This document shows, one piece after another, positions 3,939-10,701 of a stretch of DNA of 10,701 nt (within the stretch, counting starts at the first letter, position 1; each line of letters begins with the position of its first letter). Below the pieces are notes generated by a model, which saw only the letters and a list, made by a program, of their open reading frames with translations, ran no database searches and was not told the origin of the DNA. The position numbers were made by a program, and so were the translations under genes. The stretch comes from a plasmid, in the sequence record NZ_CP027399.1. One strand, 5' to 3'.

Positions 3939-4091
3939 AACTACTCCTTAATTTTATATATAATTAAAAAATTTTTCTCATACTTAAACGATAAATAGCT
4001 TCATAATAACCATATGGCGTTATTTTATCAATACAGTTTTTTGACCCTATTTTATTTTAACAAATTTTTATGCTAATAGTCAATAAATAGC

Positions 4092-4120
4092 TTGATTTTA
4101 TTTTGTTTTTAGAGTATAAT
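4092..4120 (+). promoter_or_regulatory. Possible sigma70 promoter TTGATT-17-TATAAT
   Basis: -35 TTGATT at 4092-4097, spacer of 17 nt, -10 TATAAT at 4115-4120. In DNA this AT-rich such matches can arise by chance. A strong terminator follows about 45 nt downstream, which would give a transcript of roughly 75 nt. Confidence 0.3.
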
Positions 4121-4166
4121 TATGTTGTAAATAATTATAATTATTAAAAATTAGTTGATACATTGG

Positions 4167-4199
4167 CATAGATAGTTTGGCGACTATCTATTTTTTTTT
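4167..4199 (+). terminator. Strong intrinsic terminator-like hairpin: atagatagt-ttggcg-actatctat followed by T9
   Basis: Perfect 9-bp stem (4167-4175 / 4182-4190), 6-nt loop, then nine consecutive T (4191-4199). On the minus strand no U-run follows the hairpin, so it is plus-strand specific. Confidence 0.5.
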
Positions 4200-4205
4200 A
4201 TTTTA

Positions 4206-4214
4206 TGTTATAAT
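4206..4214 (+). promoter_or_regulatory. Extended -10 promoter element TGtTATAAT
   Basis: TG at 4206-4207 and TATAAT at 4209-4214, immediately after the T-run of the upstream hairpin. It lies about 40 nt upstream of the RBS of the 30-aa ORF. No good -35 hexamer, which is acceptable for extended -10 promoters. Confidence 0.35.
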
Positions 4215-4255
4215 AAAATCGCCTCTGCTTTTTTTCTACGAGGAAAGGAGTAGAA

Positions 4256-4348
4256 ATGTATCAACTAATAAAAAAAATAATAGCATTTGTATTATTAGGT
4301 ATTATAATAATCGCCAATATTATATTACCCTTAACAATGTTATTTTAA
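4256..4348 (+). CDS. small ORF, 30 aa hydrophobic peptide (MYQLIKKIIAFVLLGIIIIANIILPLTMLF), predicted single transmembrane helix
   Basis: Not in the ORF track (too short, and in a different frame from the 69-aa shadow ORF 4177-4386). RBS AGGAAAGGAG (4241-4250), 5-nt spacer, ATG at 4256, TAA at 4346-4348. A terminator hairpin starts 8 nt after the stop. The product has a KK N-terminus followed by an uninterrupted hydrophobic stretch. Confidence 0.45.
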   Translation: MYQLIKKIIAFVLLGIIIIANIILPLTMLF

Positions 4349-4355
4349 AATTTTT

Positions 4356-4380
4356 CTGCAGCCTTTTGCTGCAGTTTTTT
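4356..4380 (+). terminator. Intrinsic terminator: ctgcagc-ctttt-gctgcag followed by T6
   Basis: 7-bp G/C-containing stem (4356-4362 / 4368-4374), 5-nt loop, then TTTTTT (4375-4380). It lies directly after the 30-aa ORF. In the minus orientation the hairpin is followed by AAAAATTTT, so it is less convincing as a terminator for the convergent mob gene. Confidence 0.5.
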
Positions 4381-4497
4381 ATTTAAAATGAATTATGCTT
4401 CTAATTTGCTAAAAATTGCCCCTCTAAGCTCCAAAATCAAAAAAAAAGGTTTTAATACCCCTTAATATAAAAAATGGCTCAGAATTGAAATTTGGGC

Positions 4498-6420
4498 TTA
4501 TCTCTCTAATGTTTTCCCTTGTGTCTTAATTTTATTCCATGCAGATTCAGGTTCTTCAAATCCTAATTCAACATTTATTTCTTTTGTTGCATTATTTTCA
4601 TCATAATAATTTGATAAATTAGATACTTTATCAATTATCTTATCAACTATTTTCTTTAAATTTGGTACATATTTCATTACATTTTGAATTACATTTAAAG
4701 TTCTTTTATACCAAGTCAATTCTCCTTTTACCTCATCTAATTCTTTTTCAATCTTTTTCTTTTCTTGTTTTAAATTGGTTATTTCATTATCTCTTAATCT
4801 TATAGTTGATTCTAATTGCTTAATTTTTTCATTTTTACTATTTAATTCAGAGTTTTTTATTTCTTCTAATCTTTGATATTTTTCTTTTAAATTAGCTATT
4901 AAAAATTCCTTTTCTGCTAAACTATTTTTAAATGAACTTAATTTGCTAGAATTGTCTTTTGCCATTCTAAAAATATATTCATAATTTTCTTTTGTTGTAG
5001 TTATCATTGGTGTACTATCAAACATTCCTTTTTTATGTTCTGATTTTTCATTATATATCTTTTCTAGCATTTGAATATTTACCCATTTATCAGTATTAGT
5101 AAATTTTGTTATTTGTCCCCTAATATTTTCTTTTTCATCTTTAACTTGTTGCAATTCATTTTTTTGACTTTTAAGATCCTCTATTATTTTTTTATTTTCA
5201 ATTATACTTTCTTCTTTTTCTTTTTGTGCTTTCAGTTTTTCTTCTTCAAGTTTTAAATACTCTTTATATTCTATTTCTTTTGCTAGTGCTATATAGTCGT
5301 GTTGTATCTTAGCATTAAAATCAAATTTAGTCTCTATTTTCTTATTAAAAAGTTCTCTCCATTCTTCTTTATCTAGTTCCATAAATTCTTCTTTTAACTT
5401 TTCTCTATTTCTTTTTCTTATGTATCTATACATTTCAATTTCAGTTAGTGGTTCTCTTTTTAAAATTTTCTTTTCAATATTTTTATTTTCTCTTTCTATT
5501 GTTTCTTTAATCTCGTAATGGTCTTTTGATTTACCATCATATACTTTCTCAGTAGAATTTTTTACAAACTCTACCTCTTCCCCTCTTATTTCAGTTGCTT
5601 TCTTACATAACTCTTTAATAAATTTATGCTCTTTACAAAAATTAAAAAGTTTATTTTGATAATCTTGATATGAATTAGATTTAGCAGCAATAGTCTTTGT
5701 TGTAGTAAAGCAATATTTCATATCAGTTTTTTTATTTCTTGGCTTGTATGATTTTATTATTTCTTCTCTATTTTCTTCAATCCATTTTTCTTTTGCGTGT
5801 TTATATAATTTTTTACTTTTAGGATCCGTATAATTTTCTTGTCCTTTTAAACTGCTATTGTATCTTGTGAACTTATTACTTGCCACCTTTTCAAATAATT
5901 CTTTATCGTTTCTAATGTCTTTCTCATCACTAGATTTTATTTCAGTTCTATATATTCCCATTATCTGCAAGTGTGGAGTAAATTCATCGAATTGTATCAC
6001 TTCTGATAGAATTCTATAATCTTCCCCCATATAATTTTTTATAAATTGAGAAACATCTTTATAAAACTCCGTCCACTCATCTTTACTTGCTAAAAAAGTT
6101 AAATTGATTCCACCTAAATTTACAAAGTTGGTTGCTTGAATTGTAGGTGTCGTAGAGTAAAAATCTTCAAATTTACTGGTATCTTTATTTAAACTATAAT
6201 CTGTATTTAAAATGTAATTATCATATTCTTCAAGATCAAACTTTTTTAGAATAATATTCTCCCCAGATAATTTTAGATTTATGTCTGGATTCTTCTGTTC
6301 TCCAATCCTTTCATACTCACCTGCAATGTCAATAATTTGTTGCCGACTTCCAGAAACTTTTGTTGACTTTTTCTTAAAATTTGAAAATATTTTGACTTGT
6401 TTTGCTATTGACATCTTCAA
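4498..6420 (-). CDS. mob: MobV / Mob_Pre-family relaxase (plasmid recombination/mobilization enzyme) with a long C-terminal coiled-coil (640 aa)
   Basis: ATG at 6420 with RBS AAAGGAGTGA (6-nt spacer). The N-terminus MKMSIAKQVKIFS follows the Mob_Pre start pattern (compare MobM of pMV158, MSYMVARMQKMKA). ...EYERIGEQKNPDINLKL aligns with MobM HNERVFETHSNKDINPSR. ...NYMGEDY...EVIQFDEFTPHLQIMGI aligns with MobM NYFAENY...ASVHLDESTPHMHMGVV (the HxDExTPHxH metal-binding motif). The C-terminal ~350 aa are a K/E-rich coiled-coil, as in MobM. Alignment was done by eye from memory of MobM. Confidence 0.7.
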   Translation of the reverse strand: MKMSIAKQVKIFSNFKKKSTKVSGSRQQIIDIAGEYERIGEQKNPDINLKLSGENIILKKFDLEEYDNYILNTDYSLNKDTSKFEDFYSTTPTIQATNFVNLGGINLTFLASKDEWTEFYKDVSQFIKNYMGEDYRILSEVIQFDEFTPHLQIMGIYRTEIKSSDEKDIRNDKELFEKVASNKFTRYNSSLKGQENYTDPKSKKLYKHAKEKWIEENREEIIKSYKPRNKKTDMKYCFTTTKTIAAKSNSYQDYQNKLFNFCKEHKFIKELCKKATEIRGEEVEFVKNSTEKVYDGKSKDHYEIKETIERENKNIEKKILKREPLTEIEMYRYIRKRNREKLKEEFMELDKEEWRELFNKKIETKFDFNAKIQHDYIALAKEIEYKEYLKLEEEKLKAQKEKEESIIENKKIIEDLKSQKNELQQVKDEKENIRGQITKFTNTDKWVNIQMLEKIYNEKSEHKKGMFDSTPMITTTKENYEYIFRMAKDNSSKLSSFKNSLAEKEFLIANLKEKYQRLEEIKNSELNSKNEKIKQLESTIRLRDNEITNLKQEKKKIEKELDEVKGELTWYKRTLNVIQNVMKYVPNLKKIVDKIIDKVSNLSNYYDENNATKEINVELGFEEPESAWNKIKTQGKTLER

Positions 6421-6604
6421 TCACTCCTTTAAAGTTTACACTTAGTAGTTTTTTTTAATTTTTGACATTTCGCCATAAAATCGGAATAATAATTTTTGAT
6501 AAAATTTTGAATTTTTTGCTTAATTTTTGTAGTACAGTTAGAGACAAGTTGTTTCTGACTAAAAATTTATCGCAAAAAACACATCAAAATTTGTTCCAAT
6601 ACTC

Positions 6605-6735
6605 TGCAAATTTTTCAAATTTGCAATTTTTACTGGAATTTATTAATTTCCAGTAAAAATAAAGGGGTCAAGGGGCTCCCTTGCACGTTAAATGTCAAGG
6701 TAAAACGGCTTGCGTTTCCTTGCATTATAACGTGC
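6605..6735. other. GC-rich, highly structured non-coding island (four consecutive stem-loops) upstream of mob; candidate oriT, alternatively a structured ncRNA
   Basis: Hairpin 1: tgcaaattt-ttc-aaatttgca (6605-6625). Hairpin 2: tttactggaa-tttattaat-ttccagtaaa (6629-6657). Hairpin 3: caaggg-gct-cccttg (6669-6683). Hairpin 4: gcacgtta...taacgtgc (6683-6690 / 6728-6735), enclosing nested pairs caagg/ccttg and aaacg/cgttt. G+C here is far above the window average. MobV oriTs typically lie immediately upstream of mob and contain several overlapping inverted repeats. Confidence 0.35.
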
Positions 6736-6763
6736 TATAATACAATATGATAAGAATTTTTAA

Positions 6764-6789
6764 AAAGGGAAAAATATTCCCTTTATTTT
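6764..6789 (-). terminator. Hairpin with flanking T-runs downstream of the ABC operon (probably works in both directions)
   Basis: aaagggaa-tattt-ttcccttt. Core GGGAA/UUCCC, followed by UUUUUAAAAA in the minus orientation and UUUAUUUUA in the plus orientation. It lies about 45 nt beyond the stop (6830) of the last permease gene. Confidence 0.4.
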
Positions 6790-6829
6790 ATATTCATTAT
6801 TTATAAGTTTAATTACCTAAAGAAATATA

Positions 6830-7630
6830 CTAAGTACCTGAACTCGAATACTTCTTTAATACATTATTCCAAATTAATACTACTATTATAAAATATAATA
6901 TTGTAATAAAAACTGAAATTAAAAATACAATTATCAAATTTTGATTACCATCTTTTAAATTTATGTATGCTGGTATATAACCGATCCATGCAACCGGAAT
7001 AATTGTTTTAAATAAAATAGAAATTACAGGATTAAAAATATTTATTGGATATTTAGAAAATTCATATATTATATATGGTAAATCTGAAAAATTAGATGAC
7101 CCCAAAAATATAATTGAAAACAATGACCCTATTACTGATATGCCTGAAAACACTAATCCCCCTAATAAAGCTATTATAAATACTAAAATAATATTCAGTA
7201 TCGGTAAATTTAATTTAAATGATATATAGAAATATATAATAATACCAACTGCTAAATCTCCCCACGCATCTTCATCAAAGCCTTCCATAAAAATTAAAAA
7301 TAAAGGATTCAAAGGTTTTATAAGTAATATATCTAATTTACCATTTATTATATAATATGATATATTTAGAGTATTTATAAAAAAACATCTCCAGATTGAA
7401 AAACTAATTGTAACTATAGAATATAAATATATCATTTCATTAATATTCCAACCGTTTATTACATTAACAATATTATATATAAAAAATATCAAAAATAGAT
7501 TAGATATATTTTTTAAAAACATCGCAATTGAACCTAAATAAAAATCTATTCCATAAGATTTTAATTCTTTTATATTAATATATAAATATAAAAAAAATAG
7601 TTTTAAATATCTTTTCATTTTATCCTCCAT
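6830..7630 (-). CDS. ABC-2 family transporter permease (266 aa, polytopic membrane protein)
   Basis: Almost entirely hydrophobic, with about 6 predicted TM segments. Overlaps the upstream permease gene by 11 nt. Last gene of the operon with the ABC ATPase. Confidence 0.65.
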   Translation of the reverse strand: MEDKMKRYLKLFFLYLYINIKELKSYGIDFYLGSIAMFLKNISNLFLIFFIYNIVNVINGWNINEMIYLYSIVTISFSIWRCFFINTLNISYYIINGKLDILLIKPLNPLFLIFMEGFDEDAWGDLAVGIIIYFYISFKLNLPILNIILVFIIALLGGLVFSGISVIGSLFSIIFLGSSNFSDLPYIIYEFSKYPINIFNPVISILFKTIIPVAWIGYIPAYINLKDGNQNLIIVFLISVFITILYFIIVVLIWNNVLKKYSSSGT

Positions 7631-8384
7631 TTATACTAATTTTCTTTAAACATAATTTAAAAATAGATTTATATACACAAAATAAAATCAATACAAAAAA
7701 AGTTTGAAAAAATAATATCTTTAAAAAATTTTTTTCATATAATATAAAATCTGCTATCTTTCCATATATATATACAAAAGGATTATAATCTAACATTTTC
7801 TTTGACCATTCTGGATAATATTCTATGGGGAAAAATGACCCTGAAAGTATAAGCATAAATATAGACTTTAAAGATTCAATTCCCCAGATACTTTGTGTAA
7901 AAAAAGAGAATGTCCCTAAAATTAATTCTATAACAAAATTAAGTACATATGAACCTATTATTATAATAATTAACTTAAATATAAAAAATATATTAAATTT
8001 CCCAATCAAAAACAAAGCTATTAATATATTAGGAATTAAAATCGCTAAAACTTTAGCAATAGTATTTCCTAATATATCAAAAAAATAATATTTTTCTACA
8101 GTAATTGGTTTTGTTAATATCCCTACTATATTACCATTTTTTACATCATAACTCATATATTGAGATAAATTGAAATTAACACTATTAACAGATCTAATAA
8201 TTATAAAATAAACTAATATATTTTTTATATCAATATTTATTGAGCTATTTTCTTTTATCGATAGCCATAAACTATATTGTAAAAATATATAAATATAATT
8301 TTTTATAATTAAAGTTGTTATTAAGCCTTTATATGATAATATTTTTTTTCCCCCTATTTTAATTAACTCTATATATTTATCCAT
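7620..8384 (-). CDS. ABC-2 family transporter permease (254 aa, polytopic membrane protein)
   Basis: Hydrophobic, with about 6 TM segments. ATG at 8384 overlaps the ATPase gene by 8 nt, indicating translational coupling. Confidence 0.65.
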   Translation of the reverse strand: MDKYIELIKIGGKKILSYKGLITTLIIKNYIYIFLQYSLWLSIKENSSINIDIKNILVYFIIIRSVNSVNFNLSQYMSYDVKNGNIVGILTKPITVEKYYFFDILGNTIAKVLAILIPNILIALFLIGKFNIFFIFKLIIIIIGSYVLNFVIELILGTFSFFTQSIWGIESLKSIFMLILSGSFFPIEYYPEWSKKMLDYNPFVYIYGKIADFILYEKNFLKILFFQTFFVLILFCVYKSIFKLCLKKISINGG

Positions 8385-9321
8385 TAGAAACTTCCTTTAA
8401 TATTTTTTCTAAATTATTTTCTTTAATTTCAAAATAATCAATCAAATTATTCAAGTAAATATAATCTAAGAAATTTTTTAATTCATCTTTTCTTATAAAT
8501 TCAAAATTATATTCATACTCATTTGTTTTACTTATTTTTACTTCTCTAAATTTTAAACTATCATACTTAAGTGGACTTTTAAGATAAATTTTTATACTTA
8601 AATATTCAATATCATTTAAAATATCATCTTTATTTTTATCCAATACAATTTCACCTTTATTTAAAATTATTATTCTATCTGAAATTTCATAAACTTCATT
8701 TAAATTATGTGAAGTATATATTATTGTTGTATCTTTTTTTAATTCTTCTATTAATTTTAAAATTTTATTTTTACTTAATATATCTACACCAATAGTTGCT
8801 TCATCTAAAATTAATAATTCAGGAGAATGTAATAATGCCGATAATAAATCTGCTCTCATTTTTTGTCCTAAACTTAAAGTCCTAACAGGCCTATCGATAA
8901 AAGAATTTAATTCTAATATTTCAGAATACTTATTTAATAAAGTTTCAAATTTTTCGCCAGGTATATCATATAAAGCTTTATTCAATTTATAAGAATCTAA
9001 GGGAGATAAATCCCATCTTAATTGTGTTTTCTGTCCAAAAATAACACCAATGTTATATAAATTTTCAATTCTATTTTCAAAAGGTTCTTTATCAAAAACT
9101 TTTATTTCTCCTTCGGTTGGAACAAGTATTCCTAAAATAATTTTTATTAAAGTAGATTTACCTGCCCCATTTAAACCTATAAGTCCTACTGTTTGTCCTT
9201 TATAAATTTCTAAATTTATATTTTTTAAAGCTTGTATTGTTTTAATCTCACTTCTAGAAAAAAATCCTTTTTTTATTTTATAAACCTTATTTAAATTATT
9301 TATACTTATAATTTTCTCCAT
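8377..9321 (-). CDS. ABC transporter ATP-binding protein (314 aa) with a ~90-aa C-terminal extension
   Basis: Walker A GLNGAGKST. Q-loop FGQKTQL. ABC signature LSLGQKMRADL. Walker B LLILDEAT. H-loop YTSHNL. ATG at 9321 directly abuts the TAA of the upstream peptidase gene (TAAATG), with RBS GAAGGA upstream. Confidence 0.9.
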   Translation of the reverse strand: MEKIISINNLNKVYKIKKGFFSRSEIKTIQALKNINLEIYKGQTVGLIGLNGAGKSTLIKIILGILVPTEGEIKVFDKEPFENRIENLYNIGVIFGQKTQLRWDLSPLDSYKLNKALYDIPGEKFETLLNKYSEILELNSFIDRPVRTLSLGQKMRADLLSALLHSPELLILDEATIGVDILSKNKILKLIEELKKDTTIIYTSHNLNEVYEISDRIIILNKGEIVLDKNKDDILNDIEYLSIKIYLKSPLKYDSLKFREVKISKTNEYEYNFEFIRKDELKNFLDYIYLNNLIDYFEIKENNLEKILKEVSNG

Positions 9322-10701
9322 TTATTTTCCTTCTTTGTAAATTTTTTTTATAATTTCAAACATTCTGCTACTTCTAGCTTTTAAATTAGAATTATGTGTT
9401 CCTTCATCCCAAAAAAATCTGAAATTTTTAGATTGAAAAGAATTTTCTAATATATTTCTTTTATTAATAATTTCATCATTATAACCAAGTATAAAATATA
9501 AATTCTTGTTCAAGTTTAAATTTAAAATATTATTTAAATTTATATCTCTAAAATCTTTATTTGAAAATCTTTTATAAAACCATTTATTATAACTTGTTGG
9601 TATACTCTCTATATGATTATTTAAATCAAGTAATGGATTTATTAAAATTTTATTTTTAATTTGGGAATTTTCTATTAATAATGATACTGTCCCCCCAAAG
9701 CTTCCACCTATTAGTATTTTTTTAGTTTTATCTTCTTCTAATAATTTATTTAATGATTTATTTAAAACATTCTTCCAATCATTATATGGTAATTTCCTAT
9801 ATTCACTTCCAAATGAAATTGAACCTGGATAATTAAATATTATAATTTTTATTGGAAATTCCTTTAAAAGCTTATAGTATAATCCACCATAATTATTTGA
9901 AAGTAATTCAAAACTCTCAGGGCCACCATGACATGATATTAAAGTTATTTCTTCTTCTTTATTTAAATCTTTAAAAATAGAAATATACTTTAAATTTTCA
10001 CTATAATATTCTTTTATTTTTATTCTATCTTTATATATATATTTTCTCAAAATTATATTATTTCTATAATTTGATGATTTATTTATTATTATCTCTCCAA
10101 ACAATAGTGAATCGATTTTATAAATTAATTTATTATCTATAAAATTATAAAGATTAACTTTACCTTTTAATTCATTAATTATTAATTTCTCACTTAAATT
10201 TAAAAGATCAATATGGATACAAAAAGTCATGCCGCTAAATACATATTTAATAAAAATATTATTATTAAAACTCAATATATCTGATATAACTCCCAATATT
10301 TTATTTGATTTTATATTTTTTTTTAGTTTAATTATTTTTATGATAAAATAATCTATAAATTTTTCTACAATTATAAAAATTTGATTATATATTCCAATAT
10401 AATAATATAATTTATCTAACAAATTAGACTCATAATTATTATTTTCATTTTTAAGTATGTATATTCGTTTAACTAAATCTATATATTTAAAATCATATTC
10501 TTTATTAGATATTAACTTTTTAAATAATTTATTTTTAAATCTCAATTTTGAACCTATAATTAAGTACTTATTAATAGGTTCTAAAAATAATATTAATTCA
10601 TTATTTTCATTAATAAATATATTCGAAATTTCCAACCTTTCTTTATAATATCGATTAAGATTATAAAGTTTTATTTGTATTTTAAAATGAAAATTTATTT
10701 T
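9322..10701 (-). CDS. S9 (prolyl oligopeptidase / dipeptidyl-aminopeptidase family) alpha/beta-hydrolase serine peptidase; 5' end outside the window (partial)
   Basis: The C-terminal half carries the S9 hallmarks. Oxyanion-hole motif CHGGPES. Nucleophile elbow IGGSFGG (GxSxG). Catalytic Asp candidate GYNDEI. Catalytic His candidate DEGTHN. The first codon of the ORF-track start (10635) is TTG, with no usable RBS spacing. The same frame stays open with no stop through 10636-10701 (...KINFHFKIQIKLYNLNRYYKER-L-EISN...), so the gene very probably continues past the window edge. Canonical S9 enzymes carry a ~400-aa N-terminal beta-propeller that would not fit in 437 aa. Confidence 0.6.
   Translation of the reverse strand, partial: KINFHFKIQIKLYNLNRYYKERLEISNIFINENNELILFLEPINKYLIIGSKLRFKNKLFKKLISNKEYDFKYIDLVKRIYILKNENNNYESNLLDKLYYYIGIYNQIFIIVEKFIDYFIIKIIKLKKNIKSNKILGVISDILSFNNNIFIKYVFSGMTFCIHIDLLNLSEKLIINELKGKVNLYNFIDNKLIYKIDSLLFGEIIINKSSNYRNNIILRKYIYKDRIKIKEYYSENLKYISIFKDLNKEEEITLISCHGGPESFELLSNNYGGLYYKLLKEFPIKIIIFNYPGSISFGSEYRKLPYNDWKNVLNKSLNKLLEEDKTKKILIGGSFGGTVSLLIENSQIKNKILINPLLDLNNHIESIPTSYNKWFYKRFSNKDFRDINLNNILNLNLNKNLYFILGYNDEIINKRNILENSFQSKNFRFFWDEGTHNSNLKARSSRMFEIIKKIYKEGK

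Follow-up and report, generated by a model that had tools for sequence, protein, structure and literature searches.

The window analysed here, that is, the whole 10,701-nucleotide (nt) stretch of sequence record NZ_CP027399.1, is a complete circular replicon of ~10.7 kb, a plasmid of Streptobacillus moniliformis, and contig UAVA01000034.1 (GCA_900458955.1) joins the end of the window to its start. S. moniliformis is the agent of rat-bite fever, and public records attribute the Rep protein of the window to a plasmid of this species. In this replicon, which has a G+C content of ~20%, every large gene is carried by the minus strand, and the sole plus-strand unit is a compact cassette at positions 4092-4380, the subject of this report: a predicted short, terminated RNA, followed on the same strand by an open reading frame (ORF) for a small hydrophobic peptide. 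The cassette fills the 559-bp gap between the start of rep (3938) and the stop (4498) of a gene encoding a protein of 640 amino acids (aa). Its parts are the following, the comparison with four related modules being described below.

4092-4120, plus strand: promoter of the small RNA, TTGATT-17-TATAAT, with a score of 10/12 in the promoter scan
4127-4199, plus strand: predicted small RNA of ~73 nt, its start placed 7 nt past the -10 and its end in a terminator hairpin
4150-4164, plus strand: anti-start segment of the small RNA, ATTAGTTGATACATT (inverted repeat I22)
4168-4199, plus strand: small-RNA intrinsic terminator, with a stem of 9-10 bp and then a T run
4206-4214, plus strand: extended -10 of the peptide mRNA, TGTTATAAT, without a -35 hexamer and at the same position in 5/5 modules
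4221-4380, plus strand: predicted peptide mRNA of ~160 nt, its start placed by the same start-site rule
4224-4254, plus strand: 5' hairpin sequestering the Shine-Dalgarno (SD) sequence, -13.8 kcal/mol, z = -3.35
4245-4250, plus strand: ribosome-binding site AAGGAG, in the 3' arm of the 5' hairpin and 5 nt ahead of the ATG
4255-4269, plus strand: predicted target of the small RNA, AATGTATCAACTAAT, covering the start codon and codons 2-5, unpaired in the minimum-energy fold of the mRNA
4256-4348, plus strand: 30-codon ORF encoding MYQLIKKIIAFVLLGIIIIANIILPLTMLF
4356-4380, plus strand: terminator of the peptide mRNA, CTGCAGC-loop-GCTGCAG (stem-loop 4356-4374) then T6, z = -4.0

Most of these parts had been named in an original prediction made from the letters of the window, and its promoter TTGATT-17-TATAAT, its extended -10 with a strong ribosome-binding site and its 30-codon hydrophobic ORF are all present as it described them. 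The first hairpin, which it reported as 9 bp long and followed by nine T, has arms at 4168-4176 (ATAGATAGT) and 4183-4191 (ACTATCTAT) that form nine Watson-Crick pairs plus one G.U pair, with the T run at 4191-4199. It was missed by our terminator scan, which requires at least 3 G-C pairs, the stem being A+T-rich. The T run of this terminator also sits at the -35 region of the peptide promoter. Folding indicates that the 5' body of the small RNA is largely unstructured and that the terminator is its only structure, as is also the case in the homologous RNAs. A second terminator had been placed 8 nt past the stop codon of the ORF; the terminator itself is found (4356-4374, T6), but the distance is 7 nt. 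It is one of the 3 terminator-like sites of the whole window, in which 1.0 would be expected. We rejected the idea that it serves as a bidirectional terminator for the gene of the 640-aa protein, as its minus-strand side is without a proper T run.

Public copies of the plasmid are identical in sequence across the cassette, and are thus uninformative on its conservation. Within the 559-bp gap, the copies differ only in L002 (run SRR017785), where an A run at ~4439-4447, outside the cassette, is altered in length by 1 base, probably through a homopolymer sequencing error. Relatives were sought, along the lines proposed in the original prediction, by searching contigs that encode Rep homologues (58-72% identity) with blastn, tblastn and an nhmmer profile. 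This revealed four further full modules: a module on L011-L013, which are metagenomic plasmids, another in Oceanivirga miroungae (L010, of which L086 is a second record) and two in O. salmonicida (L207a and L207b, on L207). The resulting five modules, on four replicons, have diverged in sequence and share the complete architecture, with a common order of parts (5/5) comprising a promoter, an RNA of 68-73 nt, a hairpin with T8-9, an extended -10, a leader, a hydrophobic ORF and a terminator immediately after the ORF.

The individual signals are equally persistent. The small-RNA promoter has near-consensus -35 and -10 elements at the same place in four modules, whereas the fifth module has an extended -10 there. 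The small-RNA terminator is of the type ATAGAnnGT/ACnnTCTAT (CCCTA type in L207a), consists in all five modules of a 9-11-bp stem followed by T8-9, and its stem shows compensatory changes between modules. Directly after it stands the extended -10, TGNTATAAT, again in all five. The mRNAs predicted from this element begin with G throughout (GCC or GGC) and have leaders of 26-40 nt with GGAG; an SD-sequestering 5' hairpin is predicted in every leader, weakest in L207b, and leaves the start codon in an open stretch. Neither place nor direction relative to rep is fixed, the module being divergent from rep in the window, co-oriented with it in L011, and ~2.5 kb away from it in L010, where it adjoins a ParE-type toxin gene; this variation in position and orientation marks the module as portable.

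An arrangement of this kind could in principle be assembled by chance from A+T-rich sequence devoid of function. The window holds 129 promoter-like hexamers where ~105 would be expected, an enrichment so slight that they are weak evidence by themselves, and inverted repeats made of A and T alone are frequent, as expected by chance in A+T-rich DNA. What lifts the observation above chance is the recurrence of the whole arrangement in four other diverged modules, which together with the window copy retain the ORF, both promoters, both terminators and a compensating complementarity between small RNA and ORF. As far as sequence can tell, these comparative data refute a chance arrangement, which we regard as extremely improbable, and the cassette is a real, conserved feature. 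The original suggestion of a small hydrophobic, type I toxin-like peptide together with a separate upstream RNA is correspondingly strengthened.

The complementarity just mentioned connects the body of the small RNA with the start of the peptide ORF. In the window, positions 4150-4164 and 4255-4269 are 100% complementary over 15 nt, and the repeat finder reports the same pair independently as I22. Cognate helices measure 15 bp in the window and 12, 14, 16 and 15 bp in the other modules, and always span the start codon and codons 2-5; the pairing sequences differ among modules, while complementarity is kept at the same two places. Non-cognate combinations, all 20 of them, yield helices of 5-10 bp as opposed to the 12-16 bp of cognate ones, and the duplex energies formed by the RNA bodies failed to beat those of dinucleotide shuffles in just 1, 4, 11, 0 and 3 of 1000 cases for the five modules. 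When the modules are aligned in a fixed register, 88% of the cells pair, and sliding the partners by 1-3 columns lowers this figure to 32-48%. Of the 15 pairs, nine have changed on both sides, and the covariation score was reached by none of 500 shuffles. As an unbiased check, RNAalifold was given the whole tandem region in a plain MAFFT alignment and predicts the same long-range helix, 7 of whose 10 pairs are preserved through two-sided changes in at least one module. A second contact is predicted in four modules between the part of the RNA immediately 3' to this helix and the first nucleotides of the predicted mRNA, and reaches 7-8 bp in L010, L011 and L207a.

On these grounds, pairing of the predicted small RNA with the peptide mRNA appears highly probable, and the upstream RNA on the same strand is very probably the antisense partner that the original prediction had left unclear. 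That prediction had seen no obvious antisense promoter. Indeed, no minus-strand promoter is conserved across the five modules, minus-strand promoter-like sites being confined to the window copy, but the window does hold one such site at 4348-4319. A cis-antisense RNA starting there was considered and dropped, the site being present in the window only.

The original prediction had also entertained the upstream RNA as a plain leader or attenuator. In its developed form, this explanation assumes essentially one transcript: its upstream part would be a 5' leader with the hairpin and T run as attenuator, the anti-start segment would silence the ORF in cis upon read-through, and there would be no separate antitoxin RNA. 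Both elements do lie on the same strand, ~90 nt apart, the A+T-rich terminator stem may leak, and positions 4127-4275, folded as one strand, give a very stable three-way structure (-45 kcal/mol, z = -7). However, the T8-9 that follows a 9-11-bp stem and the extended -10 placed just past this terminator recur in every module, the predicted mRNAs all start at G, and their first nucleotides pair with the small RNA in four of the five. We thus hold a single transcript to be rather improbable, and note that action in cis and in trans can coexist; the covarying 12-16-nt complementarity to the start region is better accommodated by an antisense partner.

Small plasmids often use countertranscript RNAs for copy-number control, and the cassette of the window lies directly upstream of rep. 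One may thus ask whether the small RNA is a countertranscript acting on the rep mRNA, with the small ORF being incidental. Yet the RNA runs away from rep, starting beyond a conserved rep-proximal element and the promoter-like sites at 4003-4083; the module keeps no fixed position, being co-oriented with rep in L011 and ~2.5 kb distant from it in L010; and what covaries with the RNA is the peptide's start codon and not rep. A copy-number countertranscript is for these reasons very unlikely, and we return to the small RNA as a putative antisense regulator of the peptide.

The window peptide consists of one hydrophobic helix with two Lys residues and no acidic residue, and the same character is found in all five peptides, which have 23-35 aa, a grand average of hydropathy of 1.8-2.5, 2-3 basic residues, no acidic ones and an uninterrupted apolar helix. 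Residues M1, K7, I8, A20 and I22 are invariant in their alignment. The L011 homologue shows 50% identity to the window peptide (tblastn, E = 2.5e-6 in a small local database of fetched loci), and the codon differences between these two fall on 12 first, 6 second and 16 third positions, where the minimum at second positions fits selection for hydrophobic residues.

Such a peptide need not be a toxin. The RNA-peptide pair could be real and the peptide a non-toxic membrane or signalling peptide (for example a short hydrophobic precursor of a pheromone or of an inhibitor) or an accessory subunit of a transporter, the RNA tuning its amount. The N-terminal Lys followed by a hydrophobic stretch resembles signal-like pheromone precursors, the window plasmid encodes an ABC-2 transporter and a TPR protein, and both L207 modules lie near ABC-2 transporter genes. 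The PhrA_Strep profile also matches, although weakly, with a score of 18.3 bits that is far under the cut-off of 40 and is obtained for only one of the five peptides, that of the window. Moreover, the genes called near the L010 and L011 modules contain no Pfam match to a transporter or to TPR, while translation would be doubly locked, by the SD hairpin and by RNA over the start codon, the terminators are strong and the module is portable beside other toxin-antitoxin genes, from which we infer control of the kind typical of toxins. A non-toxic peptide is consequently an unlikely alternative, although by no means a negligible one.

From what was computed, namely a conserved architecture, a complementarity that covaries and predicted folds, we infer transcript ends, repression, toxicity, relative RNA stabilities and an addiction role as follows. 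The strong promoter at 4092-4120 would produce a ~73-nt RNA ending at the hairpin and T run, as suggested by the conservation of these signals. The extended -10 right after this terminator would produce an mRNA of ~160 nt, in which the SD sequence is predicted to be locked in the conserved 5' hairpin while the start codon stays open, so that this mRNA would be translated poorly even before the RNA binds. The body of the small RNA (4150-4164) would then pair with 4255-4269, the adjacent RNA segment in most modules contacting the mRNA 5' end as well, thereby clamping the SD hairpin and blocking initiation; the RNA-mRNA duplex might in addition undergo cleavage. In type I systems, the overproduced toxin arrests growth or is lethal, and the RNA that neutralises it is less stable than the mRNA. 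By analogy, the single-helix membrane peptide would harm the cell if produced, by damaging the membrane once the RNA is depleted, for example after loss of the plasmid, should the RNA decay faster than the mRNA. With somewhat better than even confidence, we read the whole as a portable, two-transcript, type I toxin-antitoxin-like cassette in which the antisense RNA lies in tandem on the same strand. The predicted peptide agrees with the small proteins (< about 60-70 aa), usually hydrophobic and membrane-spanning, of type I systems, and the predicted RNA, flanked by a conserved promoter and terminator of its own and computed to pair with the toxin mRNA, agrees with their non-coding antitoxins.

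Several observations weigh against this assignment, in addition to the abundance of promoter-like hexamers and A/T-rich inverted repeats in the window. Type I antitoxins are defined as being encoded on the opposite strand (PMC10767807, PMC12390103; likewise PMC2887945), whereas here the gene of the RNA precedes the ORF on one and the same strand. No match to a toxin family of Pfam or NCBIfam (Fst/Ldr, Hok/Gef, TxpA, TisB, Ibs and others; E up to 10) was obtained for any of the five peptides, and the window matches none of the Rfam antitoxin RNAs (Sok, RNAII/par, RatA, Sib, IstR, OhsC, Rdl, SymR and others; E up to 1), while L010, L011 and L207 give just two chance-level matches to eukaryotic snRNA/snoRNA families in Rfam; membership of the Fst-, Hok- or TxpA-like families, as originally suggested, thus finds no match in Pfam, NCBIfam or Rfam. 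The polar or charged C-terminal tail that is common among type I toxins (Fozo 2010, PMC2887945) is lacking in all five peptides. The second contact between RNA and mRNA comprises only 3 bp (GGC/GCC) in the window and is absent in L207b, and the register of the fixed alignment was picked by the analyst, which the RNAalifold check partly offsets. Finally, the five known modules all belong to Leptotrichiaceae, and hence are not fully independent.

Copies of the small RNA alone, degenerate or orphan, with promoter, body, hairpin and T run and without a peptide ORF, are found in L010 (4275-4166, minus strand) and L207 (3868-3954, plus strand). The L010 copy directly follows the intact L010 module, and no convincing target for it was found among the sequences compared. 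In L011, an extra hairpin with T9 precedes the small-RNA promoter (1560-1625) and has a near-identical terminator-promoter junction (CTATTTTTTTTTAT...TATGATATAAT), so that this junction is duplicated in tandem.

Broader searches added no further modules. Megablast and blastn of the window or the cassette found no relatives among PLSDB plasmids, tblastn of the peptide against PLSDB gave no match, and blastn of an Oceanivirga module against it returned only chance A+T-rich matches. The exact window peptide is called as a gene nowhere in the sequence collection, and Rep-based scans of genome and metagenome contigs yielded no relatives. A pattern describing the terminator-promoter junction gave 8 matches in viral contigs, all due to chance, and a pattern of the same kind gave 62 in genome contigs, which are generic junctions except for the known O. 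miroungae module; the pattern GGAG...KKIIAFV had at least 120 matches in metagenome contigs, with no true relative among the matches listed. The nhmmer module profile likewise detected none in plasmids whose Rep homologues are of Sneathia type or of other kinds (L007-L009, L014-L016, L208-L217).

The large genes that surround the cassette are the following.

minus strand: TPR protein
minus strand: protein of 151 aa
minus strand: Rep, 478 aa
minus strand (4498-6420): protein of 640 aa
minus strand: ABC-2 transporter
minus strand: hydrolase-like protein

Rep has ~40% identity to proteins from many small plasmids, and a few of these proteins are annotated as replication proteins. A conserved element of ~45 nt (GGGTCAAAAA(A)CTGTATTGATAATATAACGCCA) stands just upstream of rep in every Rep-homologue locus and is duplicated in some. 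It is located as follows.

window, 4000-4060, minus-strand sense: rep-proximal element
L011, 2123-2166: rep-proximal element
L207, ~640-680 and 710-750: rep-proximal element

This element overlaps the promoter-like site 4031-4003, lies outside the RNA-peptide module and is probably a promoter, operator or iteron of rep. The C-terminal half of the 640-aa protein is coiled-coil-like; the protein matches no Pfam or NCBIfam family and has no relative in PDB by sequence, and its N-terminal QFDEFTPHLQ loosely resembles a MobV relaxase motif. The adjoining gap (6420-6830) holds the best promoter match of the window (TTGACA-17-AATAAT, 6462-6490, plus strand), a near-perfect palindrome of 17 nt (6626-6660) and a terminator-like hairpin (6764-6784), and might be an oriT or a regulatory region. 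The cargo (6830-10635 and 212-1783) comprises the ABC-2 transporter, with one ATPase and two permeases, the hydrolase-like protein and the TPR protein. ABC-2 transporter genes also lie near both O. salmonicida modules (L207 1-232 and 6707-8249), a co-occurrence that may reflect a shared backbone or a functional link.

If the assignment is correct, a well-conserved same-strand version in plasmids of Leptotrichiaceae would broaden the taxonomic range of type I systems and also the gene layout accepted for them. Definitions of type I systems and the tools that search for them presume an antitoxin on the opposite strand (PMC10767807), and prediction pipelines looking solely at that strand would systematically overlook such loci. 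A suitable search template would combine a small ORF with a preceding terminated RNA of ~70 nt, the body of which complements the ORF's start codon. The interest of the cassette thus lies in a broken opposite-strand rule and an extended phylum range, on computational evidence from five modules of one bacterial family. For bacteria of very low G+C content, S. moniliformis among them, it could also provide a compact RNA-controlled kill switch or plasmid-stabilising part, and its five natural variants, whose pairing sequences do not match one another's, already resemble an orthogonal set.

Functionally, the closest known systems are the non-traditional type I loci, including RalR/RalA, with Fst/RNAII and SprA1/SprA1AS also being close. 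Like the cassette, the TisB/IstR-1, ShoB/OhsC, ZorO/OrzO and DinQ/AgrB systems of Escherichia coli encode a small hydrophobic peptide of <35 aa and have a small RNA that is separate, lies next to the peptide gene without overlapping it and is driven by a promoter of its own (PMC3919570, PMC4147584). The complementarity in these loci extends over 18-21 nt (PMC3919570, PMC4147584), as compared to 12-16 nt in the cassette. Their small RNAs are divergent, are read from the opposite strand and pair within a long 5' untranslated region (PMC4147584), whereas the RNA of the cassette is co-oriented with a peptide mRNA that has a leader of only ~35 nt, would cover the start codon and has no sequence similarity to them. 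RalR/RalA, from the rac prophage of E. coli, also has an adjacent small RNA, with 16 nt of complementarity, that represses translation (PMC4041452). Differently from the cassette RNA, RalA has the opposite orientation and pairs inside the coding region, and the RalR toxin is a DNase.

In Fst/RNAII (the par locus of plasmid pAD1) and SprA1/SprA1AS, both of Gram-positive bacteria, the RNAs interact across the initiation region, and the ribosome-binding site is masked by a 5' structure. These systems resemble the cassette in being plasmid-borne and in encoding a peptide of ~30 aa, and their RNAs interact by short complementary segments outside the overlap of the genes (PMC8594479). They differ from it in that their RNAs are convergent, with a 3' overlap or a bidirectional terminator, while the genes of the cassette are co-directional and its terminators not bidirectional; the cassette gives no match in Pfam or Rfam.

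In layout, the cassette agrees with the type III (ToxIN-like) systems, in which an RNA gene, a terminator hairpin and the toxin gene also follow each other on one strand, and which are known in Fusobacteria (PMC4147584, PMC3401426). However, a type III RNA consists of an array of tandem repeats and binds a protein RNase toxin, whereas the cassette RNA is complementary to an mRNA, which points to RNA-RNA action, and this mRNA encodes a hydrophobic peptide (23-35 aa in the five modules). We have rejected a type III system for the cassette, which has no RNA repeats beyond a trivial TATTT run (4189-4211) and no endoribonuclease product. In the literature consulted, type I systems are known only from Proteobacteria, Firmicutes and Tenericutes, with one cyanobacterial candidate added in 2025 (PMC12390103), and we found no description in the literature of such a system in Fusobacteriota or Streptobacillus. 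It is conceivable, at slightly less than an even chance, that the cassette represents a previously unrecognised class of type I systems, the first in Fusobacteriota, in which a same-strand tandem antitoxin, whose transcription could occlude that of the toxin as well since the T run of its terminator forms the upstream part of the toxin promoter, would combine the mechanism of type I with the layout of type III.

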